Source: an uncultured Planctomycetia bacterium
GTDB lineage: Bacteria > Omnitrophota > Gorgyraeia > CAYWPX01
NCBI GenBank assembly: GCA_964460615.1
Contig: CAYWPX010000003.1
Location: 155,028 to 219,027, forward strand
Direction: 5' to 3'
Length of the DNA stretch: 64,000 nucleotides
Shown in pieces: positions 31,001-62,471 of the stretch; the stretch's first letter is position 1; every line of letters begins with the position of its first letter. A program made the translations under genes and the position numbers. Below the pieces are notes generated by a model. That model had not been told where the DNA came from, did not search any database, and saw only the letters and a program-made list of their open reading frames with translations.

Positions 31001-34000
31001 CAACATTCGTAGCATCAGTAGAGAAGTCCATATTTGCTACAGTTCTATTTATCCTTGCAGCAACAGAAACCAAATTATTCCTTGCTTCTAATACTGCGCT
31101 TTGATAAGCATTGGCTGACATAGCATCACCGGACGGCCTCGGCATACCATTGGTTAAAATGTCCAGCGCAGCCGTGGCATTGCTCAGGAGCGCTGCGGCA
31201 TTATTTATATCTATATTACTTCTTGATAAAGACGCCTGCATCTGACTTGTTATATTAACCTGCGTATTGATAAGAGTCACTTTTATAGCATCCAACTGGG
31301 CAATATTCACAGATGATAAATTTGCATTCTCAAGTGTTGCGATCGAATTTGCTACCTGGGTAATAACCTCTGAAACAGCTGAAAGCCCGTCAATACTTAT
31401 ACCGGTATTGGTTAGCCTTAAAGATCCATTGGTAATAAGATAATTGAGAGATGTCTGTATCTTTGTAACCGCGTCGTTTATAGCTGTCTGGGACTGGATG
31501 TCTCCTGAAACTCTTGCCGCTAATTCAGGAGATTTAATAGCCGCATTTATTACCTGTGCTGATTGTGCGACATTATATAACTCTCTGCCTGATTTAATAC
31601 CTTCAAACAATCTTGATGCATTTACATTTGCCCCTTCTAATTCACCACCACCGGAAACGTATTCCGCGGCATAATTAGCTATATTACCAGCAATTTTTTG
31701 GTCAACACCAAACTTCATTAGACTGTTTTGTATATAATAGCCGTATGTAGGTTCAACTATACCTTCGTCGATGACCGCTGTTAATGCCTGAAGAACGGGG
31801 TATTTTTCAGCCAAACCTTCTAATCCAAACTGACCACTTACCATCTTATTAAAATTACCAATATAGGGTATATCTCCAAGCATTCTGCTTATAGGACCCA
31901 TAGTAGGAGCTATAATAGCACCTATAACAGCGCCCTGTTGAAAAGCCTGGAGTGCTGTACCCTCGCCAAACTGGTCAAATTGCTCACTTATTGCATTAAA
32001 AACACCACCAATACCAAACGGGGCATTCTGAAAAGTTTGCCCTAAATAATTAAATGCGCCGGATAACGGCTTAAATAATCCCATTTGGCCTGCGCCCCAG
32101 AATCCAACTCCAAGCGCTCCAACTTTTAAAGAATTAAGCGCAGTATTAGCTATTGCTAATCCTGAAGTTTTCAATGCCCAGCCACCTGCGCCATCAGCTA
32201 ATGTAATACCACCCCATTTTGCCAATGTAGGCGAAGTAAGCCCTATAAGCTTGACAGTATTAAATCCGATCCCCGCTGCTGTCTGGCCAATCGATCTTAC
32301 TGAATTGGCTAATAAAGCTCCTACCTGGCCTTCAAACGACAGTGTGCCGCTTGTTCCAACAGTTGTAGCAAAATTAATAGCCAAATTTTTTCCTATGTTA
32401 ATCCCAGCTTGAAGAGCTCCGACAGCAATTCTGCCCAAAGCCTGTTCTAAGGTAGCAGTTGTAGCAAATTTTAAGGACAAATTTGTAATACCTGTTGTTA
32501 TTGCTCCTCTAAGTCCGGCTAAGGCCGCACCCACAGTAACTTGTGACGCTGTACCTGTTAAAAGTTTTATACCAGCGCCAACACCGGCAGTCATTAGTCC
32601 GCCCCAAACTACATCAACAGCTCCTGCGGCCCAAGGATTCCAATCCTTTGTCCCAATAAAACCTCTCCACTCATCCTGAAGATACTGTGTATTCACTGCA
32701 TTCATAATTGTAAGATTACGAAGATATCCAAGTTCAGCATCAGTAGTCAACCCAAAATTAAATCCTACAGTATCACCAAGGTAATTACCAAGAGCATTAG
32801 ATACATAACCAGCTTGAGACTCGGCCCATGAACCTAAAGTCAATAAACCTGTACCAAAATTCCTGAAGAAGGATGTGCCAGCCGCTAGCAATGAACTCTC
32901 TTCCCAGTCCTTTCTTCTATACTGTGTTCTCAGAGTATCTGTCATTAATTTCTTAGTCTCGCTGACGCTTAAATTTCTGTCTCCTGTAGCGCCATAAGCA
33001 TGATATTCATATCCATGCTTTTCTTCATTCCATGTTAAATTTGCAGGATTCATTCCTCCGGCAGCCAAAAGCTGAGGTATTGTGGCAGCATCGACAGACG
33101 CTGTAAATGCCCAATTTATCCCTTTCCTTCTGTTGTCATCATAAGCAAGGTCCCTAGCCTTATTTCCAATATCTAATAAATAAGCCTGACTATGCTGGGA
33201 GGCTATTTCAGACATCATTCTATTCTGCTCGGCCTGGTAATCCATTTGAGCATATTTATTATAAATAAACTGCTTAGCATCGGCACTTATTGTCCCTCCA
33301 TTCCACGCCTTTTCCATCATAATATCCATCTCAGCCTGATTCCTAAAGTAAAAACTATTCCATGCATAATTACCTGTACCGATCTGGCTTGCAGGATTAA
33401 ATAAAGATGTCCAACTGCTGGAAGAATTAACAGATGCAAGGTATTTAGCTCTAAATTCTTCGGGAGTCATTAATGTGCTGCCATCAGGGCCCATAGCTTT
33501 TAACCAGTTATTGCTTACATAATTATCATAAAGCATATCGACATATTTAGGATGCGTGGCGTATTGAGACTTTACATGCCACTTACCATTTTTATCAAAA
33601 GTCCCTGTCTGGTTCATCTTGTTTCTTAGAGCAACAATATCATTATAATTAGCACCATAGGGTTTTCCAAAGAACACAACACCGTCTGGATTCTCTTTAG
33701 CAAATTTGGCAACTATCTCAGCTTTTTGGGCGTTGATTATAGCGGTATTAAGCCTCTTACCTGCCGCATTAATAGAGTTTGACAACCCCTTAAGGGAATT
33801 ATTTAAATTATTAACACTGGTAGAAACATTATTTATCTTTTTGGCAAATCCATTTACATCGTTAAGCGATAAATTGCCGCTATATAAGGCATCTTTGAAA
33901 TTTCCCTTATACTGCGCCATTAATTGCTGATAAGAATCTAATTTATTACCCTTACTGCCGACTGACCCGATCAATGACGCAAATCTCTTGTATTCAGGCA

Positions 34001-37000
34001 AACTTCTATACTTGGCCGGTACTTTAGCCAGGGCTGCATTCAGCTTATCCTGCGATGCGCCGATAGAAGATGAAAGTTTATTGAAATTTGCTTCAAGGTC
34101 TTTAACTGCTACCATGATCTTAAGAGCCGATCCGTAGGTAAAGAACTTGGTCAATTTGTCAGCACTTCCTTCGCTAAGTGCTTCATTATAGAACGCTAAT
34201 GTCTGCCTATAGAGACTGTCTTCATTCTTAATATCTTCTCCGATCTTCGACATCGACCCGGAATTTTTGGTAAGCCAATTCTTTAGGTTAACAAGTTCCC
34301 TCTTTGTGGAGTCATCAACCGGTGAGCCATTCAAGAATAAATGGCCATTGGCTGTCCATTGTGACTTTGCACTCGGATCAAACCATGTCTTCCAGTCTAC
34401 CTTGTAACCATAGGTCGTACCATCCTCTGCTGTGATCCTCAGGACATCCTGTGACGGAATATATGTTGTCCCTTTAGTATCATTCCATAAACCCATATCT
34501 GCTAAATAGTAGAATGGGTTATTAAAATCCTGAACCACATGATTAGAACTGTCTGTCAATGAAGTTAGATTCTGAGCTTTAAACGCAATGAAATTATTAC
34601 TGACATCTTCAAATCCATTAAAATATGAGCTAGTTGCTCCGGACCAGTTATTTGCCCATATACCGCTATAGCCGTTGGTTAAATATCCGCTAGTATAATT
34701 AGCTAACATCGGATCTTGTGTACCATATTGCGTCCACGCTACAGAACGAACTTCTCCATTCTGTATAACATTGCCAGCGCCTATAGCGCCACCGGTCCAA
34801 TAATAATTACCATTAGTACTACCGCTTATTGGCGGAGCTGATGGTATACCGGCTACTGACTCAGATGATCCTGATGTGAAATTATTGGTATAGACCATCT
34901 GGGAAACAGTATCAACTAATGATTTTCCGCCATCCGTACTGTAAAATCTCCCGTCTTCGCTTAATAAGATTATCTGTCCATCCTGAGTTTCTACAGGAAG
35001 CATATTGACAGAACCGCCGCCATAAGAAGCGTCAATTGTCACACCAAAAGTCTCTTTGCCCTGGTATGGATTTGTAGAAACATCAATCGGCCTATATCCG
35101 ACCATAAAAGCATTAGTAAGATCACTAGATCCATAATTTGCCCATGGCAGATCTCCAAAAAGCGAACTTTCACTTGTATTGGTTCCAAACGGGTTATAGG
35201 CATAAGCTTCCCATCCCGTAACCTCTTCTGGGATAGGGCTTACCTGGTTAAATGTAACAGGCGGCTCGTAGAACGGAAGCGCATCTGTTTCCACATTGTA
35301 AAACCAGTCTGTTACTACCTGTTTAGAAGCAAATTCTTCCTGAGTTAATGTCCTTGCGATACCATATGTATTGGCTAATGCCTGAAGTTCTTCGTTACTA
35401 GAGGCAGATACAATAAATCTGGCATTTGTCTGCCCGTCGATCATCTGCCAATATCCGCCGCTAACAGGCGATAAGAGCACTGGACTGCCGCCTTTGGTAG
35501 GAACAGCGTAGAATCTTGAGTCATACGACAAATAATCATCAAACGATTTAGTGCTTTCATTATAAATCAATGTTACATTAGCCCCATAACTTGTAACCCC
35601 CGTATATGCATTCAAGCCCTGATTCAAAGTAAATGTTACATAATCCAGCATCCCGTAGTCTTCATCATAAACTTCCTTAAGGATAGTACCCTCTGTTAAA
35701 TCTGCATGAATGAATCCATTAGTGGAATCGAGGCTACTCCAGATCCAATGGCCTTCATCATTTGTTGTAATAAATGCATTCTTAACTTCCATTCCGCCTA
35801 TATTAAGACTATCAACTACTTGCCCTGCGGAAATCACTTCTCCCGTTAAAATATTAGTTTTGTAGTATGTCCCGCTAAGTGAGTCATAAAGATCGTATCC
35901 GGCTCTGTAATTAGGACTGGATCTATCCCATCTAAAGCTTTCAGTAGCATAATTATGCACAATGGAGTTTAATTCGGGATTAGCCTTTAACACCTGTTCT
36001 GAAACATTATACATTCCTATCAATGTTCGCCTGTTAGGATCGTTCGCATCTTTACTGAAATCAATGTTATATAAGTTTACTGTAACATTGTTAGCATCGT
36101 ACCTTGAGACCTCAGCGGTAATTGCCGGATTGCCAAATAGATCAAAATACGGGTTTTCAAATGAATTAAAGAAGGTCCCTGATAGAGACATAGAATCCAA
36201 TCCAAATTTCGATAAACCTAATGAAGGATTTAGTTCAATAGGCACTAAAGAAAGGTTTAAATTAGTCAAATCACTTGCCTTTAAAGTCTGACTATTTAAC
36301 CAGCCATTAAATCTGTTTAAAATTCTCTGAATCTTCGCGTCATTTTCCGTTTTCCATATCGTATATTGCTTCTTCCATAATTCTGTCTTCCAATTATTGA
36401 TGTCTGCATCAATAGATCTTGTAATAAAGTTTATACCTAAGAAATTAGTGACTGCTCTTATAGCCGGCTTAACGACTTTATAACTGAACCAATCGCTTAT
36501 CCCCACCCTTGCGATCCTCGTAGAGCCGTCAGGCATAGTTTGCTTTAATGGTATTATCGGTATTTCGCTTATCGCGCCCTGATAGAGATTTCTCCCGAAG
36601 GTTGACCACGGGTTAAACCCAAGATCAACATTAACACCGTATTTTTTCCAAATTTTATATTCCTGGTATTCCACCATCACGTAAGCTTTTGCGGTATCCT
36701 TTACGGCATTCCAGAATACTTTGTTATACCATTTTGCATCTGCGTCTGGGCCGGGCAGCCATTCGCTGAGAGCCGCACTTAAAAATGCCTCATCGAACGG
36801 TATCTTAAATATCCACGAATTTAAAGCCGCTGTTGCCGTCACCCTTGCAAGCGCCCACCAGAAACCAGCCCCTGGTATAAGAGCGTTTACAACGATCTGA
36901 ATAGCAATATTAATGACTATATCTTTTACGGCTTCCCATGCCTTATTGACCCATTCTCTTACAGTCGGAGATACTGCATAAGCGGTTGCCGCAACAAATA

Positions 37001-40000
37001 TAATAGCTATAAATGAACAAGCGCCTCTTGTCCTCATCATCTCTTCGCGGGACATTCTCTTTTCAGAAGTAACGCTTGCGATATTCTTGACCATCGCCTT
37101 GCCGTCCCAGCGCTGGACAAAATCCCTAAGTTTAAGCACTCTCTCAACGCCGTTTTCAATGACTGTTACGGTGTGATTATCAAGGTCTGTGGTACCGCTG
37201 ATCGCTTTTACTACCATAAAATGCTCGTCTTTGGTGTAAACAGTGATCTCACTACCTTCGACCGACAGCAACGACTGCAATTCTGTCAAAGTAAGGTTCT
37301 TTGCGCCGGCGTAGTTATTGGTGCCGGTCCTGTTTAATAGCGATCCAACAACTGACATAGAATACATGGAAATAAGCGCCTGGCTGCCTGTATTGGCAGT
37401 CATGAACCCGAAAATTATTTCTAATATCATCAGCTCTGCCGCTATGCCTACTGAAGATATATTGCCGCTTGAATATGTATAATATAATGTGTTACCGGGA
37501 GTGGTTGACGGAACATAACCAGTAAGTACTACAAGCATAGACTCCACAACGCTTCGTCCAAAGTGTTTCTGGGTAAGCGCATTTAAAGTCGCCTGCAATG
37601 TATCGGTAACATTATAGATCTTTAGTGATGAGCTGAATGACTTGATGGCATCTGCCAAAGCCACGAAGTTGCTTCCGAGGCCAGAGAAGGCTGCAGAAGA
37701 AGTGATAGACCCGCTAATAACATTGTAAATTTGAGCGAAGAATGAGGTTATCCTGCTCTTTACAGTCGCCATGAAGTTAGTATTGGCGTCATACTCAGTC
37801 TTATACCCTGTAACCGTATCAGTAGTAAGATATGTCTTTAACTGCGAAATATTCCTGGTAGCATTGAGATACTGATTCCTGAAGTTGGTTAATTCTGCGG
37901 CACCGCCGACCTCAGTCGGATATCTGCCAAGGATATCAAAGAAGACTTTTCTGATCGCCTCATCAATTGCCTTATTTAAAAGTTCAGTCTTCTTAGTTTC
38001 AGCTATACCTTTACCGTAAGTACCATTATTTATCCAGCTGCCATAAGTTGAGGTTAATGAAGAAACCCTTAAATCAGACTGGCTTTTAACCATGTTAAAT
38101 GCATCTAACCAGGCAGAATAGCCGGTAGTAGAAGTTAGGGAGGAAGTTACTCTGTCAGTCCTTGATCTATCGCCTGAAGCATATTCCCATATAATGTATG
38201 GAAGGTTATCTATATTGCAATTAAAATATGTGAAAAGCTTTGTAAAATATTCCAACTCTTCTATCGAGCCATCTCTTGGGGTAGTTAAAAAACCGCCTTT
38301 TCTGAATATATTGTTATTTATTAAATAATCCCTGATCCTGTAAGTATCGCCGATAATATCGGTATTGGCTCTAAGCATAATATCAGCGGTAATCTTTGAC
38401 CATGAAATGTATGGAGGGCCAACTATGGACTTAATGTCACTCAGAAGATTTTCCTGAATAAGATTCCTTATAGACGGGTCTGTAACAATAGAAGCATTGA
38501 TTGTCGCGATCCAGCCGGGAGTACTCTTGTTAATCGTTATAAAATCTGAAGTGGTGGGAGCTGATGGGAAATATATTACGGAATATCTAAGGTATTTATT
38601 GTATAAGTTTACCAGTTTCTCAAGGGTCAGGTTATAATATTCTTTTGTAAATACCTGGTAAGGATAATTGGTTGTATTCGAAAGGTCGCTATAGTTACCG
38701 AAAGACGGGCCGAAGAAATCGGAAATATAATTAAATGACTGCGCCAATTCAGCGGCTGTCGGCGCCCTGCCGAGGAAAAGCTTGTAAATAGCGTCTATTA
38801 TAGTAGGCTTATCTGCTGCTTCAGGCTTTACTGTATTAGTAAACGTAAGCGACGGCATCTGCGTCTTATCTTCCACGCCTTTATATTCAAAATACCACGG
38901 CTTAGAAGGAGTGCCAATCCCCTGTTGATTCGGATTAAGGACCGTAAGATATATGCCAAACTGAGGAGTGTGATTTGTTGTTATGACTGTTGTCTTATCG
39001 GCCTTAACAACACTGTAAGCAGTGCCACCCGATGTTTTCCACTGTGTCCAGTCTTCGCCATAATTATACTCATATTCCAATCCAAGGGTTTCGCCGACAC
39101 CATTATTATATAAAGCCGAAAAATATACATTCTTGGATGACGGCATATCCTGAATACGGGTATCAACTTTATAATCAGTAACGGTTTTTGTAATACTCTT
39201 GTTGCTGAAATTCATCGGCACGCCGCCGGTAAGCGAATAATTACTAAATCCTATTTCTGCATTAACACCCGGAGTCCATGTCCCGATATTCCCATTAGCT
39301 ACCCATGGGTTAGCTGCGATTTCTGAGCCATAAAGCTGATACATAGCCGGTATCGCATAATCAAGCCACGGCTTAAGGCTGTCTTCAGAGTGCCCTCCCT
39401 CAGTAAGATTTTCATCATCCATAAATTCTGAATATGCCTTACTGCCTACACTGTCTAGTATTGACATATACCAGTTATAGAAGTCAGCGCTGAAATCGCT
39501 TATTTCAACCGACTTGGATATCATGCCATCAACAGTATCCCTCACATAATAGGTATCGGTTGTTGTCAGACCATATGTTTCTATCTCTTTAAATCCGCTG
39601 TATCTCTTTACTCCGCTTATTATGATCTTATCAACTTCAACTCCGGAAGCAAAGGCCAGGTCATACGGTTTTGTTGTATCGGTGATATTTACGGGATAAG
39701 TCCCGACCGGCGCGCCTGCCTTATAAAGAGTTACTGTAACTGTCCCCATCGGCTGTGCCAGGATATTTGTTCCATACAACCTCAGGAGGTTAATCTTTCT
39801 TGTCGAATCCCATATCATCCTGATTTCTGAATTGTCTACATTAGAAGCCCATGCGCCCATCCACTTTCTTGTGGCTAGGGAACCATCTATCACATTACCG
39901 CCATAATACGCATTGTTAGAATCTGAGTAGAAGCTTGATACCTCAACTTTGGCAGTCTTTGCCATATTTACACCGGCGTTACAGACTTCTTTTGTTGCCT

Positions 40001-42266
40001 CTCCGGTAATCGACATGTAGCGGGTTGTGCTCTTTGTTGCATGAGCCTTATCATATACTTCAATTTCTCTAAATCCTGTATCGCCGGTACCTGTTGTTGC
40101 TACACTTAATCTAAGAGTAGTAGCACCTGCTACGGAAATATCATTAGGAATTAATATCTCATACCCTGTGCTGATAGGAAGGTACTGGACAGGTATGGTC
40201 CTAAGAACTGTTGAACCGGACATAAACTGTACATTAGCATTTGTAATCTTACCGGACATTTCATCTGCTTTATTTGAAACATTAGTATAAAGGACTATCT
40301 TCCTGATATCTTTACTCTCTGACCATGTCAGATCAACATTATAATTTTTGATAGAGGTGCTCCACGCGCCGGTAGCCCAGCTCGCACCATTACCTTCGGC
40401 ATAGTAATATGTGGTAGTTTTCATAGGGTCGCCATCGGTAAGCGAAGTAACCGTTGTCCCGTTGGCTTTTACGACTGCGGTCCTTGCGATATTGTCGGAT
40501 TCATCAAATGAATTTATATTTGTTGAATCGGTCTTCATCTGCCTTACATTACCGAACTTATCGTATACTTGATTGGTATATGAGGTTTCATAGGTATCAT
40601 AAATAGTGTTGTAAATTTCCACCTCACCGACCGCTGTATTAGTGTGCCTCTGTATATATACCCTCGAAACACCTTCTGTTGCGGCAAATTTAACATCTAC
40701 CTTATTTCCATCTGTATCAAAATAGTTGCTTTTATTTACAGCAAACTGCTTAAGTACATTACCGCTTACATCAAAGAGCGTTATATTCCACATACTGTCA
40801 TCATCAGATGCCGGATTCTCTTCTGTGTCTCTTTTGACGTCACGGATAATGATCCTGTCTAATGTTTTTACATTAGTACCATAATTAAACTGCATCCAAG
40901 CGGTATCATAAGCGCCTGATGCAGGTTTCCACTCACCGGCGTTATCTTTATAATTAAAGGCTCCATCGATCAAATTTAAATTTGAAGAGCCTGACGCAGT
41001 TGCACTTGTTGTGATACTGGCATAGCTTGCAACGTTTTTACTGCCTATACCGCCTACACTAATATCTTTATTTATTGTGCCATCGGCATTATAGATAGTC
41101 TTTCTGGTATAGTTATTATCGCCGAGAGCAATATTGGGGTTAAAATACAAAGTTCCGTCGCTCTTAACGGCTCTGTTGGAAGTACTGCCCTGCCAAGTAG
41201 TAATAACATTGTCTTTCGAATCAAGCTCATATTTGAAGAATATAGTGTTGCCCAATGAATCAATAGCTTTTGTAACTCTGCCGTTTTCATCAAAGTAGGT
41301 TATTGAGATCCTGCCGTTATCGCCCTGCTCATAAGAAACTGCTATATTACCTTTGGAATCATAATCATAACTTCTCTTAACATGCTTAAGAGTATTATCA
41401 ACTCCAAGGAATGGATTGGTCATGAGAACATCGGAAGTATAAGTAGCCCCTCCTGGTGTAACACTGCCTGAAATAGTACCGGATCCCTGATAACTTATTA
41501 CTGATGTAGAGTATTTATAATTTCCCTTTATTTTCCCGGACATCAGACTTACTGCCTCAGAGTTCATGCCATTATCCACGGCTTCTATCATTTCACCTAA
41601 ATCATCAAATTTATAGCAAGATATATACTGCGTAAGAACAGTAGAGGTAACTCCGCTTGCTTCTTCATAAGAATCCTTAAGCATAGAGGTAAGATCATAA
41701 TGCGATACAACTTTGCCGCTGGCGTCTGTTTCATAAATAAAGTAATGATTTCTACCCTGGCTGTCTGTCATGCTTGTGGCCCTGCCATTTACCTCATCCT
41801 GGAAATACGTGACTTTGGAAGCGTCATCAGAATAAACTTTTAAGTTTGAATTTGTAAATGAGGCACCTGAGGTTTCAAGCTTGATTGAATGGCTGCCCGC
41901 TTTCAGTAGATAAGTGTAATATCTTGTCTTCTGTATACCCTGGTCAACTGCGCCCCTGAAAGATGATGGGCTCTTAAATGCGGATATCTTTGCTCCGTCT
42001 ATAGAAATCTGTAGTTCACTATCGGCGGCCGCCAATGCTGTGATCTCTATTGTAACCAAAGTCTCGGTGGCTACGTTTATATTTAAAGTTTTTGAAGCAC
42101 TAACTAAAGGTAATGTTTCACCGGTAATCAGAGTGGTATAAGGAACTGCCGCAAACGCCCCGCCATAAAGCGCTGTTTCAACTTTTTCGTATCGTTTTAT
42201 AAGATCGCCTTTAGAATCTCTGAAGTTCTTATAGTATGTCTTTCTTCCATTTTTATCCTGAACGCT
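1..42266 (-). CDS. In-frame continuation of the giant ORF beyond the TAG: at least 14,088 sense codons in the same frame (mod 3) with no stop, 3' end beyond the window start. Either read-through of the same gene or a second giant gene.
   Basis: Full manual codon-by-codon translation of the reverse complement from 42266 down to 1. Spot checks at 42181-42266, 39570, 33000, 30000, 29400, 21000, 17880, 12840, 11760, 7020-7300 and 1-182 all lie in the same frame as the upstream ORF and are stop-free. The ORF track lists no minus ORF in this frame or frame 1 across 42 kb of AT-rich DNA, only five short frame-2 ORFs. That is expected if this frame-0 ORF has no stop in the window and is therefore not listed. 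Confidence 0.75.
600..4700 (-). repeat. Degenerate nucleotide-level tandem repeats (unit about 620-660 nt, about 6 copies) encoding paired Ig-like modules
   Basis: The recurring plus-strand motif …cttcgctcttatataag… (antisense of LYKSEGH) appears at about 1880, 2535, 3165, 3780 and 4440. The flanking stretches tgtctgtatctctatc… and …gtccagttaag… repeat at the same phase. Confidence 0.5.
7085..7170 (-). other. Internal signal-peptide-like segment (basic n-region, 13-residue hydrophobic core, AxA site)
   Basis: …RLRAGLLKAISKIANKRIVATILLGVTLLGNPAITTPAEA|LNLS…, verified codon by codon at 7020-7300. A TTG at 7134-7136 would give MKAISKIANKR… if used as an internal start. Confidence 0.5.
8118..8135 (-). 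other. Second HExxH motif (HEMMEH)
   Basis: ALFRQVLHEMMEHTAVLGEP, verified at 8101-8140. Could be a metal site or chance. Confidence 0.25.
8650..9620 (-). other. Possible alpha/alpha-toroid (six-hairpin glycosidase or epimerase-like) domain
   Basis: SWTYDVGVTGISLVASG…AGNIAVGPVSWNIMFLTNLYE…EWVSQFQ…HNATAGAALIKLG…GGMWTGENF, with W/G-rich helical hairpins. Low-confidence fold guess. Confidence 0.25.
11060..11830 (-). other. PHP-family phosphoesterase domain (CpsB/YwqE-like tyrosine phosphatase or Pol-X PHP fold)
   Basis: GRVDMHYHTYYSDGNLTP…GIIDHNTF…ITGVEFD…VLVLPHP. Verified at 11760-11831. Confidence 0.6.
12800..13500 (-). other. PI3K/PI4K-like kinase catalytic core
   Basis: TILIDYMTQRFFALMGL (compare IFKxGDDLRQD), LRDSDRTPWNMMF (compare DRHxxN), IVHIDFGGTMF (HIDFG). 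Verified at 12840-12900. Confidence 0.45.
16600..17850 (-). other. C-terminal polytopic membrane region of the GT2 module (at least 7 predicted TM helices)
   Basis: ALWALGAFAATFGLLSLF, LPLNFVFVFYLIQALLY, PQFLVITVLTLMSPLIIFFV, FVSYSTLFYPALAIVAMW, LIPTIIGGALLTWAALSLSPFSIAVSGAYLLSPLISFW, APFVILLTGLFGNIF, VVWGAWVVGSLYALAYIVGPLISAGVGAI. Confidence 0.5.
17850..18580 (-). other. GT2-family processive beta-glycosyltransferase catalytic domain (cellulose-, chitin- or hyaluronan-synthase-like)
   Basis: NYRVIISSS…TDADDFLLLTDKDE (DxD) … VSEDLAFSLQ (TED-like) … TQFYVRHKKWSGG (QxxRW-like). Verified at 17880-17940 and 18331-18380. Confidence 0.6.
18620..18950 (-). other. Two N-terminal TM helices of the GT2 module
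   Basis: MEIIPGLGALFTFISKFIK…WGTIIGLSLSAAAMTIIPELK…IKLNLINIFAFWGIFWLYGAFNWVV. Confidence 0.5.
21900..22350 (-). other. Protein-kinase-like fold 2 (aminoglycoside-phosphotransferase-like Brenner motif)
   Basis: LVGSGATNPVYSKDGSNFVIK … YVDLDITRFADNYGVDENGNVVIIDVEA (hxDxxxxN…IDxE pattern). Confidence 0.35.
22600..23200 (-). other. Protein-kinase-like fold 1 (putative)
   Basis: Gly-rich loop plus Lys: LASGAEAEVFEIAGEKYVVKVV. Catalytic-loop-like: GIIDLDGKRMLNYGV…GDVKGYDYH. Confidence 0.3.
24358..24375 (-). other. HExxH zinc-binding motif (HEAEH), possible zincin-like metallopeptidase
   Basis: KEQKVAFLKMILVHEAEHLNTTGFNPAVSEIM, verified at 24354-24390. Motif only. Confidence 0.3.
27600..29540 (-). 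other. SecA-like DEAD motor ATPase domain (SF2 fold) embedded in the giant ORF
   Basis: Motifs verified by direct translation. NAVLFNSIIAQVEAMRGFTIGMRNDVNVIRAIAELAYNGADNFFRIPAGTGKTDVIFAIATV (compare SecA FGMRHFDVQ…EMRTGEGKTL). KANFISDEADTSF (DEAD box, compare SecA VDEVDSIL). FSGFSGTLDS (compare GMTGTA). FTLGATRGIDVVFNGN (compare TNMAGRGTDIVLGGN). VEVHAITDKFSKATDIEQLLNRDRGVRLGGKFVYAYTAED (compare [39 protein letters not shown]). Confidence 0.6.
29900..31700 (-). other. Long low-complexity, N/S/T/A/L-rich predicted alpha-helical fibrous tract of about 600 aa
   Basis: …SLNYLITNGSLRLTNTGISIDGLSAVSEVITQVANSIATLENANLSSVNIAQLDAIKVTLINTQVNITSQMQASLSRSNIDINNAAALLSNATAALDILTNG…. Confidence 0.45.
31700..32640 (-). 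other. Glycine/alanine-rich hydrophobic core with many GxxxG/AxxxG motifs (phage tape-measure TP901-core-like)
   Basis: GAVDVVWGGLMTAGVGAGIKLLTGTASQVTVGAALAGLRGAITTGITNLSLKFATTATLEQALGRIAVGALQAGINIGKNLAINFATTVGTSG…GALGVGFWGAGQMGLFKPLSGAFNYLGQTF…. Confidence 0.4.
33690..34140 (-). other. Coiled-coil segment of about 150 aa
   Basis: LEANFNKLSSSIGASQDKLNAALAKVPAKY…NNVSTSVNNLNNSLKGLSNSINAAGKRLNTAIINAQKAEIVAKFAK, with heptad-like N/S/L/A periodicity. Confidence 0.5.
36850..37060 (-). other. Internal cluster of 2-3 predicted transmembrane helices
   Basis: MSREEMMRTRGACSFIAIIFVAATAYAVSPTV…IVINIAIQIVVNALIPGAGFWWALARVTATAALNSWIF. Confidence 0.5.
37885..38810 (-). other. Two DUF4214-like motifs (LGRxPxxxE/G…) in an uncharacterised extracellular-type region
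   Basis: IIDAIYKLFLGRAPTAAELAQSF (38735-38810) and IDEAIRKVFFDILGRYPTEVGGAAELTNF (37885-37970). Confidence 0.3.
39570..41030 (-). other. Three tandem discoidin (F5/8 type C, galactose-binding-like) domains
   Basis: SNLNLIDGAFNYKDNAGEWKPASGAYDTAWMQFNYG…VGEVEIY; GNGASWATGAWSTSIKNYNVDLTW…GFREIEVYD; NAYYGGNVIDGSLATRKWMGAWAS…GFKEIETYG. Verified by direct translation of 40921-41020, 40051-40080 and 39854-39900. Confidence 0.55.
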
Positions 42267-42269
42267 CTA
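42267..42269 (-). other. Single in-frame TAG inside a YD-repeat (…ITTYNIYGDM-TAG-SVQDKNGRKTYYKNFRDSKGDLIKRYEK…)
   Basis: Verified by reverse-complementing 42181-42281. The same frame and repeat register continue on both sides. The next in-frame ATG is 166 codons downstream (41769-41771). Confidence 0.9.
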
Positions 42270-45200
42270 CATATCGCCATAAATATTATACGTAGTTATG
42301 CTGTCAACATAATTAACCCCGGATGCATTTGTTTTCGTCTGCGTAGCAGTTAAAATATTACCCTTTGCGTCTTTTGTATAACTGAATTTTGTGATATTAC
42401 CGTTATTATCTATTGATTGCAGGTTATCACCGCTTCGCGGATCCATTACTACTCTTTCAACCTTATTGTTTCTTGCCGGGGTTGTATTTATTACTTCGGT
42501 GATCTCGCCTCTATAATTCCTGTTATAAGTAATATTTTTGACAATTCCGTATTCATTGGTCGATGCTATCGGATTACCCAAGAGATCATACTCAATGGTG
42601 CCGGTTGCAACAAACTGCTCATCGCCGGTAGTAATATCCTTACCGATCTTTTTGTATTCTATTCTCTTTTTAATATCTCCGGTTGCAAATCTTTCATAAC
42701 CAATCCTTGTTTCTGCGCCGTTCTGGTCAATAATGGATACCAGGCTGCCATCCTCAAAGAATTTCTGGCTATAGTTCGTAACCTGGTCATTTGCATCTAT
42801 CACGCCATCGCAATTTATGTCAGTATCTCTGTAGCTTGCTTTCTCTATGGAACTGGTGACATTGCCAAGGGCGTCCTTAAGATATGCGTATTCTGTAACC
42901 CTGCTATTCTTATCGGTAAATTTTACAACGTCCCCTTCCAGATTGTACTCAGTATCTTCATAGAAGGTTATAGTCTGGTCCGCAACTCCGTCCTGGTTTA
43001 TGTCATCTTTATAGGTAGTAGTTCTTCTCATCTTTGTTGTATTACCGAGAGAATCATTGGTATAAGTAAAGGTGATTGTCTTATTGAACTGCGCGTCAGT
43101 TCCTTTGCGGTCTTCGACTTCGCTCATTACTGCGCCGTTTATATAGAAATTCTTTGTCTTTTTGACTTCTATGTATTCATAGGTACCGTCGTTATTAATA
43201 TCCTCATGTCGGGTAGTCGTCTCATGGCTTGCTATGACATTTAATTTGTTATCCCATTCATAAGTGAATGAGCTGTTATTTCCGTTTTTATCCGTAAGGG
43301 CCTTTATTGATCCGTCAGCATTATAGTAGGTAGTCATGCTGTATGAATAAGGATCCGTTGCCCCTCCTTCATATGAGAAAAAGGTCTGGGTGATCCTTGT
43401 CCTGTTACCTTTATAATCCTTGTTGTACTGATAATAGATCCTGTTGCCCTTATTGTCTTTTGAATAATCAAGCTCCCCGACCATGGTAAGATCGCCGTAA
43501 GTGTTAATAGAGCCTGTTTCGGTAACAAAGTATTTATCCAGATACTTGGAATCAAGCTGGCCATTGCTGTTTGTATCTTCGCCGGCATCAAGAACGCCAT
43601 TACCGTTTACATCCTCGCCTCTAAATGCCCAGTCTGTTTCCCTGACTGAAGCGACATTGCCCTTGTCGTCAAATGCATAGTTGCTATACATGGTCTTATG
43701 GCCATTCTCATCTATCAATGCCTTTATCTGCCCGATCCAGCCGGCTTTTTGACTGGCCGGTACAGAAGCGGGAACAGTTGATTCTACATAATATTCATAA
43801 CCTTTAACGTTGGTGATTACATTGCTTGCATTGGTAGGATCGGTGTATGTCATCGAGGTATACATATATTTCGTTCTACCGCTTGCTGAGTCTTTTAAAT
43901 AACTATATTTTGTACTAATACCATTTTCATCTACGGACTCTATCATCTCGGAATTATTGTTGTACTCTTTGGATGAAGAGACAACAAAATACGCCGGGTC
44001 AGTTGAATGCGCCGTATATTCTTCCTTTGACACGCTTACGACTTCTGCTCCTGACCTCTTGTAGTAAATTTTCTGCACAGTCTTAGAATAACCTATAGCA
44101 TAGTTATTATAACCGTTCGCGTCAGTCGGATACTCAAAATAGTACATAATTTCATTCTTATCTTTAATAAGCGTTATTTTTCCATCTGCATCGTAGTAAG
44201 ATGTCTGGGCCCCGTAATAAGATCTCTTGTCTTTGGTGATCGTGTAATCAAGATTGCCGTCATCTTTATATACATATGTAATAACAGAATCATATGATTC
44301 ATAAGAAACTGCCCTCTGTTCTCCGTCAACATCAGCATATCTTGTGAGAGAAGTGACTCCCTGTGCAAGCGCATTAGGCCTATTGGGATTTGACTCTGTG
44401 GTATTGATCAGCTTGCCTGTCGCGGAATCGTAATAATAGAGCGTCCTTGGATGAATATTTGATTTGTATGTCGTATCCGCCCCTAAGCTGTAGATCACGG
44501 CTACCTTTTCGGAATTACCCGTTCCCTGGAATACGGTGACGGTCCTTTCAACAGAGCCATCCATAAGCTTTCTAACGCTTATGCAATAGTCCATATCTGC
44601 GTTATCCGAACCGGCTTCATCACTATCAATATCAAGAGTAATGCCTGTGAGATTAAGGGTGGCTCCTATGACATTAGGATCCGGAGTAATTTCGCCCTTA
44701 TAGAAATAATAAGTTTCCATTGAATTTGAAGGATCGATCATCCTGACCATTCTCTCGTTGCCGGATGTGCCCTCGTAGAAATATGTCACCAACGTCTCCT
44801 GGCCTCTGGAATCAGTAGACTGCTCTTTAGCGGTTGCAAGGACTCCATTGACATAAACATAAGTCCTTGTTGTTTCAGGAGTGGCGCTGCCGTTAAAGAA
44901 TTCCTGTTTTTCAACCCTGCCGTCTGCTACCGAGAAATAACTCTTGTTAAGCAGGTTATCAACAGTCAAACTTGCTCCTTTATACTTGGCCACTGTAATA
45001 AGCCTATCCGTATATGTAGCGTCATAAGTGTTGACGAGCCAATATTTCTGGTTTCCTTTAATGACATTGTTGGAAGCGTCAAGAGAAGCTTCGAATATAT
45101 TGAGAGGGCTGCTGTTTGTATCATAATAAGTCAATTCATTCTGGCTAGGATCGTATACGCTATCCAGCTTATCGCTTGTTGTATTGTAAAAATAGATGCC

Positions 45201-48200
45201 TTTTATCTTATCGTTTTCATCCTTAACGGTGACTTTTTTGACTTTTGCTATGCCATTTACGGTTTCATACTCATAAGTTGTAACGTTTTTATAACTCTTG
45301 AAGGAAACATCTGATATGTAGTCATAATAGACTATCTCTTCAGATTTAACGAGCCTTCCTGACTGGTAAGTATAAAGATAAGACCTTACTCTATATTGAT
45401 TACTTAGCGCTATAGCCGCATCCAGAGTACCGTCCTGATCAATGTCCTCACCGGCGTCAATTACAGCATCATTATCGAGGTCTTCTCCCAGCATATTACC
45501 TTTGTAAACCACTAAAACCTGGCCAAAGTTATCAAGGGTGCTGGTTTCATTCTTATAGTAGTTATAAATTTTTGAAATAGCTTCTCTGTCGCTGTCATAG
45601 GCATATCTGACTTTATCTGTTACATTACCCATTTTATCTTTTATTACTACTATTTTATTGATAAGTTTTTTATTACCTGTTGCGGAATTATAATATAAAT
45701 CTGAAATAACTGTACCGTTAGCTACGCCTGAATCATTGTACCTGGTCTCGGTAATATTGGTGACATTCCCTGTTGTAGCATTGTAGGTGTAAGCGTATGA
45801 ATTTCTCAAGTCCGCAGCAACTTTTGTCTTATTGGGCGTATAATCATTATTATAGACTGATGTCACTTCACCGGAATAAGCATCAAAGAAACTTGTTGTG
45901 TTTGACGCCTTATTATAAGAAGATATCAGCCTGCCTGAATCGGTATTGTAATAATTTTTAATAACATTTCCGGTAGAATCCGTCATTTCAGTATGCTCAA
46001 CAGAATTACCGGAATAGAAATAAGTAGTAGTAGATGTCTGCGTAATAACATTATTGTAGCTATCTTTATCATAATTGTTTGATGTAACTGTCCTTATAAG
46101 GTTATTGGTATCATAGGTATAAGCATAATCAGCCAAAAGTGCATAATTTACTCCCACCGGCGCCACTCCTGTATAGGCAGTAGAACCAAGATACCTGTAA
46201 ATAGCTACGGGGTTGCCGGTATTATCAAATTCTGTAACCTGCTTGTCCCTTTCTGAATAGCTTCTTAAAAGCGCTCCGTAGTTGGCCGTTACATCAAAAT
46301 AATAATAAGTTTTCCAGTTATCGCTGTCAGTGATGTAATAATTCTGGACGAATGTATAACCTCCAACAGTTGTATAGTTATAAGTTGTAGTTGAGGTTGT
46401 AGTTAATGTCTCTCCGCCGCCATTTACCTTGTCATATGAGGTCTCGGTAGATGTGCTGATATTATAGACATTTGCAGTAAAGGTATAAGTATAATGCTTT
46501 AACTGGTAGTATTCGCCAGTTCCAAGGCCATTCTGGTCATAATAAATATCTGATGGCTGCCCTTTTTCAATACCGGTCGTATAATATAATGTTGTCCTCT
46601 TCCTGGATAAGTCGTGTGATTTAGTCAGAATGCCATTTGTATAGGTATAGGTAGTTCTATTATTAAATCTATCGGTATAAGCTGTTAAATTGCCGTCTTC
46701 ATCGTACTCTCTTATGCTAAGGCCATTTCCGTTTACCTTATCATATTCTTTTATTGTCTGAAGGGTTAATTTGCTGTCAAATGTATACTCATAATGATAT
46801 AACCATCCAGATAACTTAAGCGCATTTTCATCGGGAGTAGTAGAGTAAGTCCCTTTATAAACATCTCTGGGCTGATTCTTATCATCATAATATGTAAACT
46901 GCTTTTTAGTCTGGTCAAATGAGAAAGCAAGACCGTTAGTATTGTAGAAATAATCAGTTCTTGCGCCATTCTTATCGATGATGCACATAAGGTTGCCGTT
47001 AAAATTATTGGTCAGGTACCCGCGCTTAGTAAAAAGATTGGCATATGTTCCGGTCTGAGGATTAAAGGTGGAAAGATCTGTGCCTATGGCGTAATTACTC
47101 ATATCATATTCGTAAGATATGAATTTTACGTCATTGGACCTTATGGTATCAGATATAGATGAATATACATAATATTTGCTGACAGGGACATTATAAGTAG
47201 TTCCAGAATTCCATCCATATACATAATCAGCCACTCTCTGAGTAGCATCAAGCGGATTGTCCTTATAATAGGTTCTCAAAGCACCCGCGCCGTCTACACC
47301 ATTTGGCTTATAGGTTGTGTAGCTAAGCTTACCGCCGGAATATACATAATCCGTTACGGCGCCATTCTGATTAATAGAGCTTACTACATCGCCTACTGTG
47401 GCTGTATAGCCATTTGTGTTTGTCTTATAGATTGACTTATCATAAACATAATAATATTTTCCGCTTCTGTAGAAATATATATCACCGGCTACCGGCACAG
47501 TATCAGAAGGTTTCGTCATATCAAATCTAATAGATGTCTCCATCTCCAGATTATTTCCATAAACAGAGAATGTATATTCATAGTGGTATAACTGTTTCGT
47601 AAGGTCGCCGTAAACGCCGGCATAAGTATCCTCAACAAAATTATCCTTATTGAAATAATCTGTAGTCTTAGCATTAGTTGTCGGGTCGGTTTTTTCTATG
47701 GCATAGCTTACTCCGACCAGTGACTCCGTATCGTAGTAATATTTATATCTTCCTAATACAGTTGTTCCATTATTGTCATAGGCAATTACCGTATCTATCT
47801 TTCCGTAACTATTAAAGGTAGTGACATTATATTTCTGTGTACCTGTTATATACTCAGTCTGGCTAAGGACATCTCCGAGGTTGCCGTTGGCATCACTATA
47901 AGCATAAGAATATGTCTTCTTTAAAACGTACGCTGTGCTGACCCACTCATAATATTCAGTCATCAACCCGCGTTTATTATAAACGATCTTTTTATTCGGA
48001 GACCCTGTTTTGTCTTCCGAATAAAGCAAATATCCTTCAGCATCATAGGTGTATTGGATATTATCTATTTTAGTCCTGTCAGTCTCAACCCTATTGAAAG
48101 ACCTGTAGACTTTTCCTATATTGGCCGAACCTGCATCATCGTCATTATTATAGTAAAATTTAGTTGTTACAGTCGGCTGAACAGTAATGCCGGCCTTATA

Positions 48201-51200
48201 AAATTCGGTTGCCATACCAACCTTTGTGCCGGTTACTGTCCCGTTCACACTACCTTCATAATCTGCGCTGAATAAAGTGGTAACATTGCCGGGATACAAA
48301 CCTTTATAATCATCAGCAACCTGCGACCTGCCCGTGACTGTAGATGAGGTAAACCTAATATTATCAATAAAAGCGTTTGCTCCGGTTGTAGTAACGGTGT
48401 ATACATTTCCTATTCTGAACTTTGGATATGTAGTGCTGGATATAGTGGTAGGATAATAGAAAGTTGTGGTATTGTCCCTGTAAGCCCTCTGCTCACCATT
48501 AACATATAATGCTACAAATTTAGTTGTAGCGCTAAAATTCCATGTTACTGTTAACTTGTACCATTCACCAACTTCTACATTGCCATTCATGGCAATTTCA
48601 GTCTTGCTTGTACCATTACCCATGGTAAAAATAAAACCTTTTACTTTGCCGCCTCCGATACTGGTCGGGTCAAACGCCAGTCTTAAATGTTGTTCAGTCC
48701 CGCCCGTTCCTCCGGCCCCAAGATAAAAGTAGTTGTGAACTGATGTTACATCCATTGGTTTTACCCACATATCCAATGTACCTGTGGCAAATGTAGAGAG
48801 TATGCCTGTCCTTGAATAATCAACTGCCTGGTTATTGCCTATGAATAAGGATTGCCCTGTTGCTTTCTTTTCAAAATATTTTTCAACCGATCTTTTTATA
48901 GCCCCTTTTGAATCCATATAATAATTATAGTGGACCAGATGGGTTTCTGGAGACAGATAGCCATTGAGATTCATTATAAAATTATTATATCCCCTGTAAT
49001 CCCCCTTATAAACATCTGTTACATTTCCAGTGGCGTCATAAAAAGTTGTCTGGCCGTTAAATTCGTCATATATAGTCCTCAAATCACCCATATGCTGCAC
49101 ACCATTGATCCAAACGGGCGTGTATTCATAGTAAAATTTATTATTATTATTATCTATTACCTCGACAATTTTCCCTTCATTAATATCATAAATGTTAGTC
49201 GTAACATCATCCATCACTTGCCCGCCGTCTACCGTGACTTTTCTTGTATCTTTTCTCTGGATGATATTGCCGTTCTCGTCAAAGGTATAATCATAGTGAT
49301 AAAGCAGATTGGCGGGAAGTTTTGCGGCATCGCCGTTTCCTTTATATATATCAGTCACATTGGCTTTATCATCATAATATGATGTCTGATTATTCTTCTG
49401 GTCATAGACATATTTCAGATTCCCAAAATTATCATACTCATAAGCATAGGTTCTATTATTCAATACATCAAGTTGGGTCTTGGATTTGCCGCGCTTTGCC
49501 GCAACATCTGTATAGGCCGGATCACCGGTTCTGCCGTTATAATAAGTCGTGTCATAGGTCTCTGATAAGGTAATTAATCCGCCCTTAGCGATGTTACCTG
49601 TTATAGCAACTCTCCCCGTTGCTGAATTAGTACCTTCAAAATCATCAAAGAATGTCTGTCCTGTTGCCCCAAACAATGGTGTAGAGAGATAATCTTCCTT
49701 AAGCTGATCCAATGTCTTACCATAATTAAACCCGACTATATTATCAACCGTGCCGTTCAATCCCCTCGAAGTCGCATTTACACTACCGTTTCCAAAGTAA
49801 AACGTTGATGGAAGTGACGGTGTGGCAAATGTTGCACTCCCTATAAGCGTACCGTCAATATAAGCGTAGAATCTGCCGCCTGACCAGGTTATGGCAAAGT
49901 GATGCCATTTGTTATTGAAGTTTGCAAATTTGAACGGGCTATCATCGGCAGGGGCATCAAGGTCCAATGTGACGGCATTTGTCTCATTAACGCCATATCT
50001 GAAATATATCTTATTATTAGCAGTACCAGCTTTTCTCATGTAGATACCAAGATAACTTGTACTACTTACCGTATCAGTGGTAGCGCATTTCAATATAGAT
50101 GTATCCTTACCTGATGCCCACTCAGGCTGATACCAGAATTCAACCGTTCCCTGGCTATAGTTCGTAACTAATTGCTTATCGTACCTTATACCTGTGTTTG
50201 TAAAATCTTCATTGCCATAACCGCCGCTACTGGCTCCTTCAAGCCTCTTATAGCCGATCTTTCTGTCTTTTAGCAAAATATAGTTATAATCTGAAGCAAA
50301 ATCAGATGCTGAGTAAACATACCTGTAAAGAAGATCGGTTACTGATGGGTTGGCGCTATTTCCCTTATAAACACTCTTCAAAAGCCCAGCATTATTATAA
50401 AAACTGGTTGTATCGTTATACTGATCGTAGATGTAATTAAGCTTATTAAACTTGGCCTTATCGGGTGTAGGATCAGCCGGGTTGGACTGATAATAATAAA
50501 AATATTCATGTCCAGCCTTATCCGTTACTTTGGATATCCTGCCGATTGAATCAAAATCAGTTGTATTTGTTTCCGTAGCGGTTACCGTACCTGAAGCGAT
50601 ATATCTGGTTTCGACTGATCTTGTTATTTGGCCGCTTGCATCATATGTATAATCATAATGCGTTTTTAGTTTGCTAATATCTTTTGCTCCGAGATCGCCT
50701 TCATATATATCGCTGATATTATTTTTGGCGTCATAAAAATATGTTAAATTATTTTCTTCGCTGTATGAGCGGACAAGTTCGCCGGTAGACGTGTTGTAAT
50801 AGTGCCTTGTAATCTTGCCAGCCTTATCTTTGGCTTTTATCATCATCAGCCTGTATGGCTTTGTAGTGGTATAAACATATTCGATCTTTTTATTGATGGT
50901 CACTACCGTATTCAGGTTTTCTGTTGTTCCGTCATATTTATCAAGAACAAAAGTATCATAGGCGACTTCATCGTACCAGAGCATATTTCCGGTAGATTCA
51001 TCATACTCATAGTTATATGTAGCCTTCAATGTTCCGGAACCGGGAGTGGCGACATCACCAGCTTCAACTCTCCACACGACACCCTTTTCCAAACTATCCG
51101 TAACCATCGAATCATAATAGAAAGAAGTAGTATTCTCGGATTTAGTATAAGCCCTGTTTAGAAGATCTGTAACAGGATCATAATAATATTTAATACTTGG

Positions 51201-54200
51201 CGAGCTTTGGGTATCCCCTGAGGCAATTCCTCCCTTATCGATAAGAGCAGTTATCCTCCCCTTGGAGTCGTAATATTTTATGGAATTAACATAAGAAGTT
51301 TCGGCGCCACTTATTTCGCCATCCCCATTTGCGTCATCGCCGATAGTCTCGGTAACCTGCGTATTAAACCCGTATGACGCATCCTTTAGATAACTAAACG
51401 TGGTTACAGTCTTAGCGCTTTTATCAACTATCTTTGTGACGTCTCCCTGAGAGTTTATATATGTAACTTTGTTAGTTTCTGTGATAATGGAGTTTGTGAT
51501 CGAATTAAAATAGTCTCTTTCATACGTATATTTGGTTTCGATAACATCCCCGGGAGTAAATGTGATCTTATATGTCACCCCGCTTATTAATTCTTTGGTA
51601 ATATTCGTAATACCGTAAACTGTCTTTATTTCATTAATGATCGCGTCAAGATCAGCGCCGGTAAAGCCATTATTAAGCTTTACGAGAACCCTTGTTGGTG
51701 CAAATGAATAACCCATCGGATTTTCATCTGTAGTAAGAAGCACATCGGGAGAGGCATCATTGACCTTAGAATACTGCTTAAAGATATTTGCCAATACATC
51801 GCTTGTAGGGAAATTCTGGACCTTTTTCGTTTCCACCAGCGGGTCAACCTTTTCATTGAACTTTCCGGTGCTGTCCGGGACCATTCTTGTAAGGCCGATC
51901 TTGGTATATTCATACTTAGTGAGGACAACATTGTTCTTCATCTCGTATTTTGCTATCAATGCGCCGTTCGGGTCTTTGACATATTTGTAGGTAGTAACAT
52001 CGTCCGCATTAACCTTGCTTTCGTTCTTAATAAGATCGCCATCGCTATTGAAGGTCTGAATATATTTTTCTGTTTCAACAAGGGTAATATCCTTATTTTC
52101 ACTGTCCTTTGTATATGTATATGTAGAGACCTTATTCTTTATATCGGTGACCCTTGTAAGTTTCCCGTCCGGTGCGTATTCATACATGTTATGTATATTA
52201 AGGCCTATTTCGAGTTTCCCGGTTATTTTTCCGCTTGAATTTTTAAAATACTGGTAGGTAATTTCGCTCTGGGGATATCTGGCATCCATTTCAGAGATAA
52301 GCTCCCCAAGCTCATTATATTTCCATATTCTGATACTATTGGTTCCGGGAGCCCCTGGAGTACCATCCATAAGAGTTACCTTGGTCATTGTATAACCTTC
52401 TCCATCAACCAGGTACTCATAATAATAGAAATTGCCGTACTTATCCGTAACCGTTACGGGTTTATTTTCACTATTTCTGTCATAAATAGTCCTGCCGTAT
52501 TTGTCTACCTTTCTGATAATAATTCCCTTATCCTCATCATCTGTTGAATAATAAATGGTGGTACCATCCTGTGCAACGTCATGATCTATATCACCGAATG
52601 CGTTATAAACATAATAATGCATAGTATCCACTCTCGGGGACAGTTTCCAGTTAGAATCAAGATCGAATTTAACAACATCGCCCATCTTAAGCGTAATACT
52701 TGAATTAATATTATTGGTAGCAGTAACAATAACTGTCTTCGGAGTATAGCCCTCCTCAGCTTCTTCAATGCTAAGGCTTACAAAAAAGCTTTCTTTTGTA
52801 ATAGGGTTGTAGAAATTAAGATATTCTGAACCAAGCTTTGTGCCTTTAAGCGTCAGATTGCTAGATGCATCAGCTACAGGTGTAAGGCTGCCATCGGTGA
52901 GTAACGACCAGCTATAAGCGCCTTTTCCCGATGTGATCTCATTTCTTAATTCAACTCTTAGGGTATCATTCTTATTTATTGTAAATACGATTTTGCCGTT
53001 CTCTACATCTTCTCCGTCATATCTTATTACTACGCCTACAGAGTTTACTATTATAGTGTGCGTAACCCCCGCCGCCTCACTATCCTCTACCGTTAGATCG
53101 ATATTGAATAATCCTCTTGTGAGATTATAGTCAGTATCACTGGTATCCACGAGCTGATTAACAAGCTGAAGGTTCGTTGTCCCGAATCTTACCGGCTTAA
53201 AGGTCCAAACACCGTTTCCGGTATTGGCTGTATCGATCGATAATAAGCTGTAATCAATGCCCATGCTCATATCATGCTTGATGGCGGATATTGAGCCCTG
53301 GTACAACGGCCCGGCCAAAAGCGTCCTTGTCTCTACCTGACCGGCTGCATCGACAGTATAAATATACCTGTAACCAAGAGCCCCCATAGAATCAAAGACT
53401 TCTTTAGTCAACCCATTTCTTTCGTCATTGGTGACATAGTAAGTGATCTTACTGCCGTCATAGTACGAGGTACTCAGCCTATTACCATTGACATCATATT
53501 CAGTGACTGTGTCTAAAGATACTTTAGAATTAAAGGTGGTGGATTCACCGTATTTATTTATACCATAGAGGTAAAATATATCCTGGCCATTGCTATCGGT
53601 AATTGACTTTAGCCTGCCCAGTTCGTCAACCTTGAAGCTTACCTTAACCGCATCATACAGCTTGATATTAGGGTTCAAAAAGAACCTTCCGTTTGAGGCG
53701 TTGTAATGATATTCAAACACCATCCCTTTGTAGTTTAGTTTCACTACATAGCCCGATGCCGGTACATTCTTATCGCCTGTTAAATCATATCCATCCAGCG
53801 TTGAATCCGCCCAATTGTAGTTCACTATACCAGCCAGGGTAATTTCTTCCCCGAAATAAAGATCATATTTACCAACACCATAACCGGCAATATTTTCATA
53901 AAGATCTTTTGCTATCGCCTCTATAAGCTTCTTGCCGTTCACAAGAGGCTGGCCGGCCATGATCGGTTTTAACGTAAGAGTTGTGCCGTCATAATCATAT
54001 TCATATGTAATGCCTTTATATTTAAGGACTATCTTATAATCCTCGCCTTCAGGCCTGATCATTGAAACAAATTTTATTTTATTCTTATCGCAGGCGAGGA
54101 ATGTTGACAGATTTGAGATTGCGTTTTTAATAGCTCCTATATTATTCCCGAAGCTAGCGGTATTGTCCATCACCGGATCAAGATATATCTTATTAATAGC

Positions 54201-62466: not shown

Positions 62467-62471
62467 TCCTT
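62467..62471 (-). promoter_or_regulatory. Ribosome-binding site AAGGA, 7 nt upstream of the ATG
   Basis: Minus strand reads aaaaaaggaaaaagct then ATG. Confidence 0.5.

Follow-up and report, generated by a model that had tools for sequence, protein, structure and literature searches.

In-frame stop codons are frequent in bacterial genes and are mostly short-lived polymorphisms (PMC7918605), and the genes that carry them, described as nonsense-interrupted genes or 'pseudo-pseudogenes' whose stop may undergo low-level read-through (Belinky et al. 2021, PMC7918605; Feng et al. 2022, PMC9122581), are the closest known counterparts of the locus analysed here, a giant minus-strand open reading frame (ORF) interrupted by a lone in-frame TAG in a 64,000-nucleotide stretch of contig CAYWPX010000003.1 (hereafter the window). 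As in those genes, a single in-frame UAG lies within continuous coding sequence, the frame downstream of it is intact and no restart signal follows, and an age on the scale of population polymorphism fits the data. The present case differs in the size of the target, which exceeds 62 kb: in the whole giant ORF a total of 8,163 sites are one step from a nonsense codon, about 60 times as many as in a typical gene, and a nonsense change is therefore far likelier here than in a gene of the usual size. The reading preferred here, to which about an even chance is given, is that a single giant gene has very recently acquired the TAG, as a real nonsense mutation or a strain polymorphism.

The second related group is that of the giant proteins of Omnitrophota (10.1101/2023.11.21.568195; 10.64898/2026.06.07.730766), with which the present ORF shares a length of more than 20 kAA (thousand amino acids), the TSP3 repeat (PF18884), the concanavalin-like domain (PF13385) and Peptidase C39 (PF03412), as well as beta-rich Rhs-like repeat arrays, embedded enzymes and hydrophobic segments. 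In a 2026 preprint on these giants, TSP3, PF13385 and Peptidase C39 are described as recurring domains and 80% of the sequence clusters of proteins of at least 10 kAA as singletons (10.64898/2026.06.07.730766); the giant protein described here is likewise a sequence singleton. It differs from them in that neither a SecA DEAD-like nor a dockerin domain was found in the part that lies within the window. Being a single ORF of at least 10,000 amino acids with mosaic domain content, the giant ORF looks like an Omnitrophota-type giant protein, the phylum being suggested by weak matches; the window contains no marker gene. The best of these matches to the TAG region (P0002 and P0007) are 'discoidin domain-containing' proteins from metagenome-assembled genomes (MAGs) of Candidatus Omnitrophota.

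The Rhs/YD-repeat toxins and their kin (Tc toxin C components, Rhs effectors of the type VI secretion system, and teneurins) carry repeats of the YxYDxxGxLxxxxDxxG type, which those of the giant protein resemble, with Pfam RHS_repeat scores just under the cut-off. In the toxins the repeats build a single shell, some 700 residues long, that encloses a C-terminal toxin, whereas here they extend over about 7,000 residues and are interleaved with other domains. Members of the Rhs toxin family possess an Rhs-associated core with a PxxxxDPxGL cleavage motif, followed by the C-terminal toxin. No NCBIfam match to the Rhs-associated core was obtained in residues 3731-9731 of the giant protein, and its identification as a canonical Rhs toxin was rejected for lack of this domain; the motif DPxG[LWIVM] gave three matches across the giant protein, the C-terminus of which lies outside the window.

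Programmed read-through of a stop codon, of which the A1 protein of phage Q-beta is an example, resembles the present arrangement in that a long open frame without a start of its own comes directly after an in-frame stop. It differs from the present case, for which no conservation, stimulatory context or structure, or protein evidence was found.

Evidence for one coding unit on both sides of the TAG

A single minus-strand frame, running from the ATG at 62459 to base 3 of the window, contains 20,819 codons and exactly one stop, the TAG, with no TAA and no TGA in frame; the remaining two minus-strand frames contain 1,414 and 2,415 stops. The giant ORF occupies nearly the whole window (3-62459, minus strand) and runs off its left edge, so that 20,819 codons are a lower bound on its length. 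The TAG is codon 6731 (42267..42269, minus strand; context GAT ATG TAG AGC GTT), the CTA at 42267-42269 of the plus strand reading TAG in the frame of ATG 62459. It divides the giant ORF into an upstream part of 6,730 codons (42270..62459, minus strand), from ATG 62459 to the codon preceding the TAG, and a downstream part of 14,088 codons in the same frame (3..42266, minus strand), which is free of stops up to the window edge. A preliminary description of this stretch had reported a lone in-frame TAG followed by 42 kb of stop-free sequence, and both statements were confirmed: against about 470 stops expected from the positional base composition, none was observed in the 14,088 downstream codons (42,264 nt). 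Codon usage upstream of the TAG correlated with that downstream (r = 0.91), and the blocks of 1,000 codons flanking the TAG were indistinguishable in this respect.

The TAG cuts a YD-type repeat (42231..42290, minus strand; residues 6724-6743), which reads YNIYGDM before the stop and SVQDKNGRKTYY after it. A hidden Markov model (HMM) of the YD repeat, trained on the giant protein itself, detected 75 repeats between residues 117 and 16,762, and matched the TAG-spanning repeat with an i-Evalue of 2.9e-6; all but five of the repeats lie before residue 7,357, which is about how far the YD repeats reach beyond the TAG. BLASTP alignments with the internal repeats crossed the TAG, and the repeats of P0002, an unrelated protein from an Omnitrophota MAG (for example YSVFGDVLSLADRNGRKINYQY), also aligned through it. 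The continuity of repeat register and reading frame across the TAG, as noted in the preliminary description, is borne out by both methods. With Pfam, RHS_repeat matches on the two sides of the TAG (residues 5252-5283 and 7056-7093) reached 20.3 and 21.1 bits, just below the cut-off of 22. The residues right after the TAG fit the repeat without a gap, and hopping or bypassing at the TAG was ruled out on this ground. An AlphaFold2 single-sequence model of 450 residues across the TAG had a mean pLDDT (predicted local distance difference test) of 40 and was unusable.

The ATG at 62459 is preceded, at a distance of 7 nt, by a Shine-Dalgarno-like (SD-like) AAGGA (62467..62471, minus strand), and this arrangement was taken as the reference for the appearance of a start site in this DNA. 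The N-terminal hydrophobic segment read from the translation (62286..62339, minus strand; residues ~41-58, WLKTIASVLVFTFLFQEV, with RRR before it) was the sole export or anchor signal found by hydrophobicity scan before residue 8334, where the first hydrophobic, transmembrane-like cluster after the N-terminus begins (36876..37460, minus strand; residues 8334-8528). The scan gave no segment between residues ~58 and 8334, and both sides of the TAG would therefore belong to one exported stretch, the TAG being located inside the 8,270 residues that separate the N-terminal anchor from the 8334 cluster. The YD and DUF7402 domains that follow the TAG take up about 1,600 residues and lack a separate export signal. 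The extracellular-type domain DUF7402 is present in three copies, all downstream of the TAG, the best-scoring of which (40053..40493, minus strand; residues 7323-7469) gave E = 7.5e-10 and 39.5 bits with Pfam (cut-off 27). Of the extracellular-type domains that the preliminary description had placed after the TAG, the YD repeats were found as such, while the 'discoidin' domain is DUF7402 in Pfam, the nearest proteins being named discoidin domain-containing.

Several independent tests agree that the giant ORF on both sides of the TAG is one coding unit, the TAG being an in-frame stop within continuous homologous coding sequence.

Gene-boundary signals downstream of the TAG

A true split into two genes would have the TAG as the end of the first and an internal start (TTG at +70 or +78, ATG at +166, or a non-canonical codon) as the beginning of the second. 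The public source evidently called the 6,730-amino acid product as a separate protein, and TTG and ATG codons are present in frame downstream, both of which are in accord with such a split. For 69 codons 3' of the TAG, however, no ATG, GTG or TTG occurs in frame. The first canonical start is the TTG at +70 codons (42057..42059, minus strand) and the first ATG lies at +166 codons (41769..41771, minus strand), opening the N-terminus MTDSQGRNHYF. An SD-like motif was absent before all four canonical starts examined (TTG +70 and +78, ATG +166 and +195), and none of the four yields a signal-peptide-like N-terminus. The only motif found near the candidate downstream starts was a 4-nt AAGG, at the non-canonical ATA at +23. 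The ATG right before the TAG is in frame and runs directly into the stop. The statement that no start follows for 166 codons is correct for ATG (none for 165 codons) but does not hold for TTG (+70 and +78, both without an SD-like motif); the accompanying statement that the downstream part has no signal peptide of its own agrees with the candidate N-termini.

No independent start was found for the downstream part, nor does a start with its ribosome-binding site lie within a few nucleotides of the stop, as it would in translational coupling of two adjacent genes. Promoter-like and terminator-like sites were no commoner than in shuffled sequence, and none was located just 3' of the TAG on the coding strand. 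The two parts lie in the same frame with zero spacer and with one repeat unit cut in two, and the stretch of 69-165 codons that leads from the TAG to the candidate starts remains open and keeps to the repeat and domain pattern. Membrane insertion of a separate product by the hydrophobic segments from residue 8334 onwards is conceivable in principle, but the first of them would be preceded by about 1,600 YD/DUF7402 residues without means of export. On these grounds the split is considered highly improbable. The frame, the missing spacer, the cut repeat, the absence of a restart signal, the shared codon usage and the intact downstream frame of 42 kb together also uphold the earlier argument against an old, true end of the gene at the TAG with untranslated DNA behind it.

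Age of the TAG, possible consensus error and possible read-through

Within the downstream part, 5,409 single-base changes would make a stop. Upon neutral drift of an untranslated sequence, the chance that this frame stays open drops to 5% at 0.17% divergence, a limit that counts substitutions and that indels would tighten. If the downstream part is untranslated and drifting, the neutral divergence since the loss of translation is thus below about 0.17% (95% level). The intact downstream frame thus leaves two possibilities, a very young TAG or continued selection on the downstream part.

The position that matches the TAG is variable in the other repeats, being occupied by V, T, I, K, D, N, S, L, E, R or M. 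Codons for four of these residues, K (AAG), L (TTG), S (TCG) and E (GAG), and also CAG (Gln), are each one base from TAG. The ancestral codon was probably AAG, CAG, TTG, GAG or TCG, among which the present sequence does not choose; a change of CAG to TAG would be of the commonest mutation kind (C to T).

The database searches returned one record identical to the upstream part and no relative covering the TAG. The upstream part is identical to P0001, a protein of 6,730 amino acids at NCBI that derives from one contig of 219,046 bp and forms a one-member cluster. An exhaustive HMMER search of 1.84 billion representatives, for which the query was the 1,200 residues surrounding the TAG, gave only P0001 and weak repeat matches, and no protein in this library matched the first 600 residues after the TAG; either the source did not annotate the downstream part as a protein, or very long proteins were omitted. 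In genome contigs the only matches were generic YD ones, at 23-27% identity, from Butyrivibrio and from a MAG of Clostridia, and neither the metagenome contigs (two scans) nor the viral contigs (one scan) contained a relative covering the TAG. A word-indexed search of a protein collection of 5.8 billion sequences found nothing, P0001 itself not being returned either.

With the sequence known from a single contig only, the TAG could be an artefact of assembly or consensus, with a base miscalled or wrongly polished, or with strain variants mis-assembled locally, in which case the organism has a sense codon at this position. An artefact and a young mutation are indistinguishable from the sequence alone, and a precedent exists among the giant genes themselves: after a local error in the assembly was put right, two adjacent giant genes on one contig were merged into one gene of 74,983 amino acids (West-Roberts et al., bioRxiv 10.1101/2023.11.21.568195). 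Against this explanation, the 62.4 kb of frame contain no indel, which points to an accurate consensus, and the giant ORF would be expected to carry only 0.003-0.03 nonsense errors at an error rate of 1e-6 to 1e-5 per base. The DNA around the TAG is also unique in the window, the 500 bases on either side having no second copy, and the window is without long DNA repeats; mis-assembly driven by repeats is unlikely for this reason, and repeat collapse was rejected in the absence of a DNA repeat near the TAG. Because the indel-free 62.4 kb indicate an accurate consensus, in which about 0.03 nonsense errors would be expected, a real nonsense change is more likely than an artefact; the artefact is rated as unlikely, while keeping an appreciable share of the probability.

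Functional decoding of the TAG could take the form of programmed or selected leaky termination by a near-cognate tRNA, or could depend on genes elsewhere in the genome, for a suppressor tRNA or for pyrrolysine machinery, and would give an abundant form of 6,730 amino acids together with a rare full-length form of more than 20,800 amino acids. The fully intact downstream frame and the distal domains without their own export signal or start are in agreement with such decoding. For bacteria there are reports of in-frame stops that are conserved and subject to purifying selection (PMC7918605), and among the stops of Salmonella pseudogenes UAG was read through most often (PMC9122581). The local sequence, however, does not favour it. 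The 126 nt from just before the TAG form no stable RNA structure (fold z = +0.49 relative to shuffled sequence). Rfam gave no match in the window at gathering thresholds and, at E values up to 1, none in the 1 kb on either side of the TAG, and no tRNA gene was detected in the 64-kb window, which holds essentially one gene. The TAG is flanked by G at -1 and A at +4, in contrast to the C-rich context of translated UAG pseudogenes, C being enriched at both positions in the Salmonella pseudogenes with UAG read through (PMC9122581). Decoding of the TAG as a general sense codon was rejected, the TAG occurring once in 20,819 codons and not as a regular sense codon; its frequency alone is not conclusive, because CGG, the rarest sense codon of the giant ORF, occurs only twice (the next rarest at least 8 times). 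Only a slim chance is given to functional decoding.

In the absence of a stimulatory RNA structure, a known RNA element or a favourable context, programmed read-through is unsupported and the ordinary options, mutation and consensus error, are likelier. The three explanations offered in the preliminary description (read-through, recent nonsense mutation or error) are all forms of one interrupted coding unit, and to that extent the proposal stands; of the three, read-through is not favoured. The TAG might be a maintained leaky terminator giving two isoforms, one of 6,730 amino acids that is anchored and a minor one of more than 20,800 amino acids, for which the chance is put slightly lower still than for functional decoding in general. 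The minor isoform would carry further adhesion-type domains, membrane segments and enzymes, and a giant surface protein of a bacterium would thus switch between two isoforms through read-through of a stop codon, which is so far undescribed. Low-level unprogrammed read-through of UAG is known in Salmonella, usually as glutamine (PMC9122581), and here it could yield traces of full-length protein, which would be incidental.

Under the preferred reading, that of a very young nonsense change, the locus would be one giant gene of at least 20,819 codons for a membrane-anchored, largely extracytoplasmic multi-domain protein of the Omnitrophota kind. A single base change would have turned a sense codon into TAG at a variable position of a YD-type repeat. 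To judge from the intact distal frame, this change would be very young; most likely the assembly consensus has caught a real nonsense mutation or a strain polymorphism. Where a cell bears the TAG, ribosomes would mostly terminate after residue 6,730 and release a truncated, N-terminally anchored protein. For the distal part, at least 14,088 codons long, to be made, a near-cognate tRNA would have to misread UAG, a rare and unprogrammed event. Two points weigh against this reading. An error of the consensus or of local assembly leaves an identical sequence picture, and the intact 42-kb frame is equally expected under selection for a read-through product.

Features of the giant gene and significance

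Upstream of the TAG, in addition to many YD-type repeats, the giant protein contains the following Pfam domains, all encoded on the minus strand: TSP3_bac (residues 428-447), FKBP_C (residues 899-984), Peptidase_C39 (residues 1131-1212), Beta_helix (residues 1387-1566), and two matches of Laminin_G_3 (residues 2278-2439 and 4091-4246). Deep inside the downstream part, a GT2 glycosyltransferase domain (Pfam; 17769..18548, minus strand; residues 14638-14897) is followed on its 3' side by hydrophobic segments (hydrophobicity scan; ~15540-17435, minus strand; residues 15009-15640), and the two together resemble a membrane-bound polysaccharide synthase module. A PHP domain (Pfam; 11532-11822, minus strand; residues 16880-16976), a further hydrophobic cluster at residue 17555 (hydrophobicity scan) and a weak match to D-glucuronyl C5-epimerase (~9040-9190, minus strand; residues ~17757-17806) lie beyond. 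A weak Rad50-like match (~33750-34310, minus strand; residues ~9384-9571; E = 0.002, well short of the cut-off) is probably the trace of a coiled-coil stretch.

With respect to composition, codons 9,000-16,000 correlate less well in usage with the first third of the giant ORF (0.71-0.83), probably owing to a different amino-acid composition in that region. Only 26 cysteine codons are present among the 20,819 codons, and the arginine codons CGA and CGG are used ten times and twice, respectively. An ORF of 275 amino acids with a TTG start (42417-43244, plus strand) lies antisense to the giant gene and adjoins the TAG region. Since stops are scarce in the antisense frames of the giant gene, this ORF is probably spurious. 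The neighbouring gene on the 5' side of the giant gene (62746-64000, minus strand) encodes a Laminin_G_3 domain and ends in TAA, and its frame is open to the right window edge, the protein being probably longer than the 411 amino acids listed.

The giant gene itself is more remarkable than the TAG, which is chiefly an annotation caveat: the source evidently recorded only the first 6,730 amino acids of a coding unit that is at least three times longer, and a single stop of this kind can understate both the number and the length of giant genes in MAGs. A new regulatory mechanism would be involved only if the TAG is conserved and read through. If the TAG is real, a giant gene has been caught just after its truncation, which bears on the upkeep of such huge and fragile targets, and the locus would offer a natural test of the dispensability of the distal two thirds of a giant protein.

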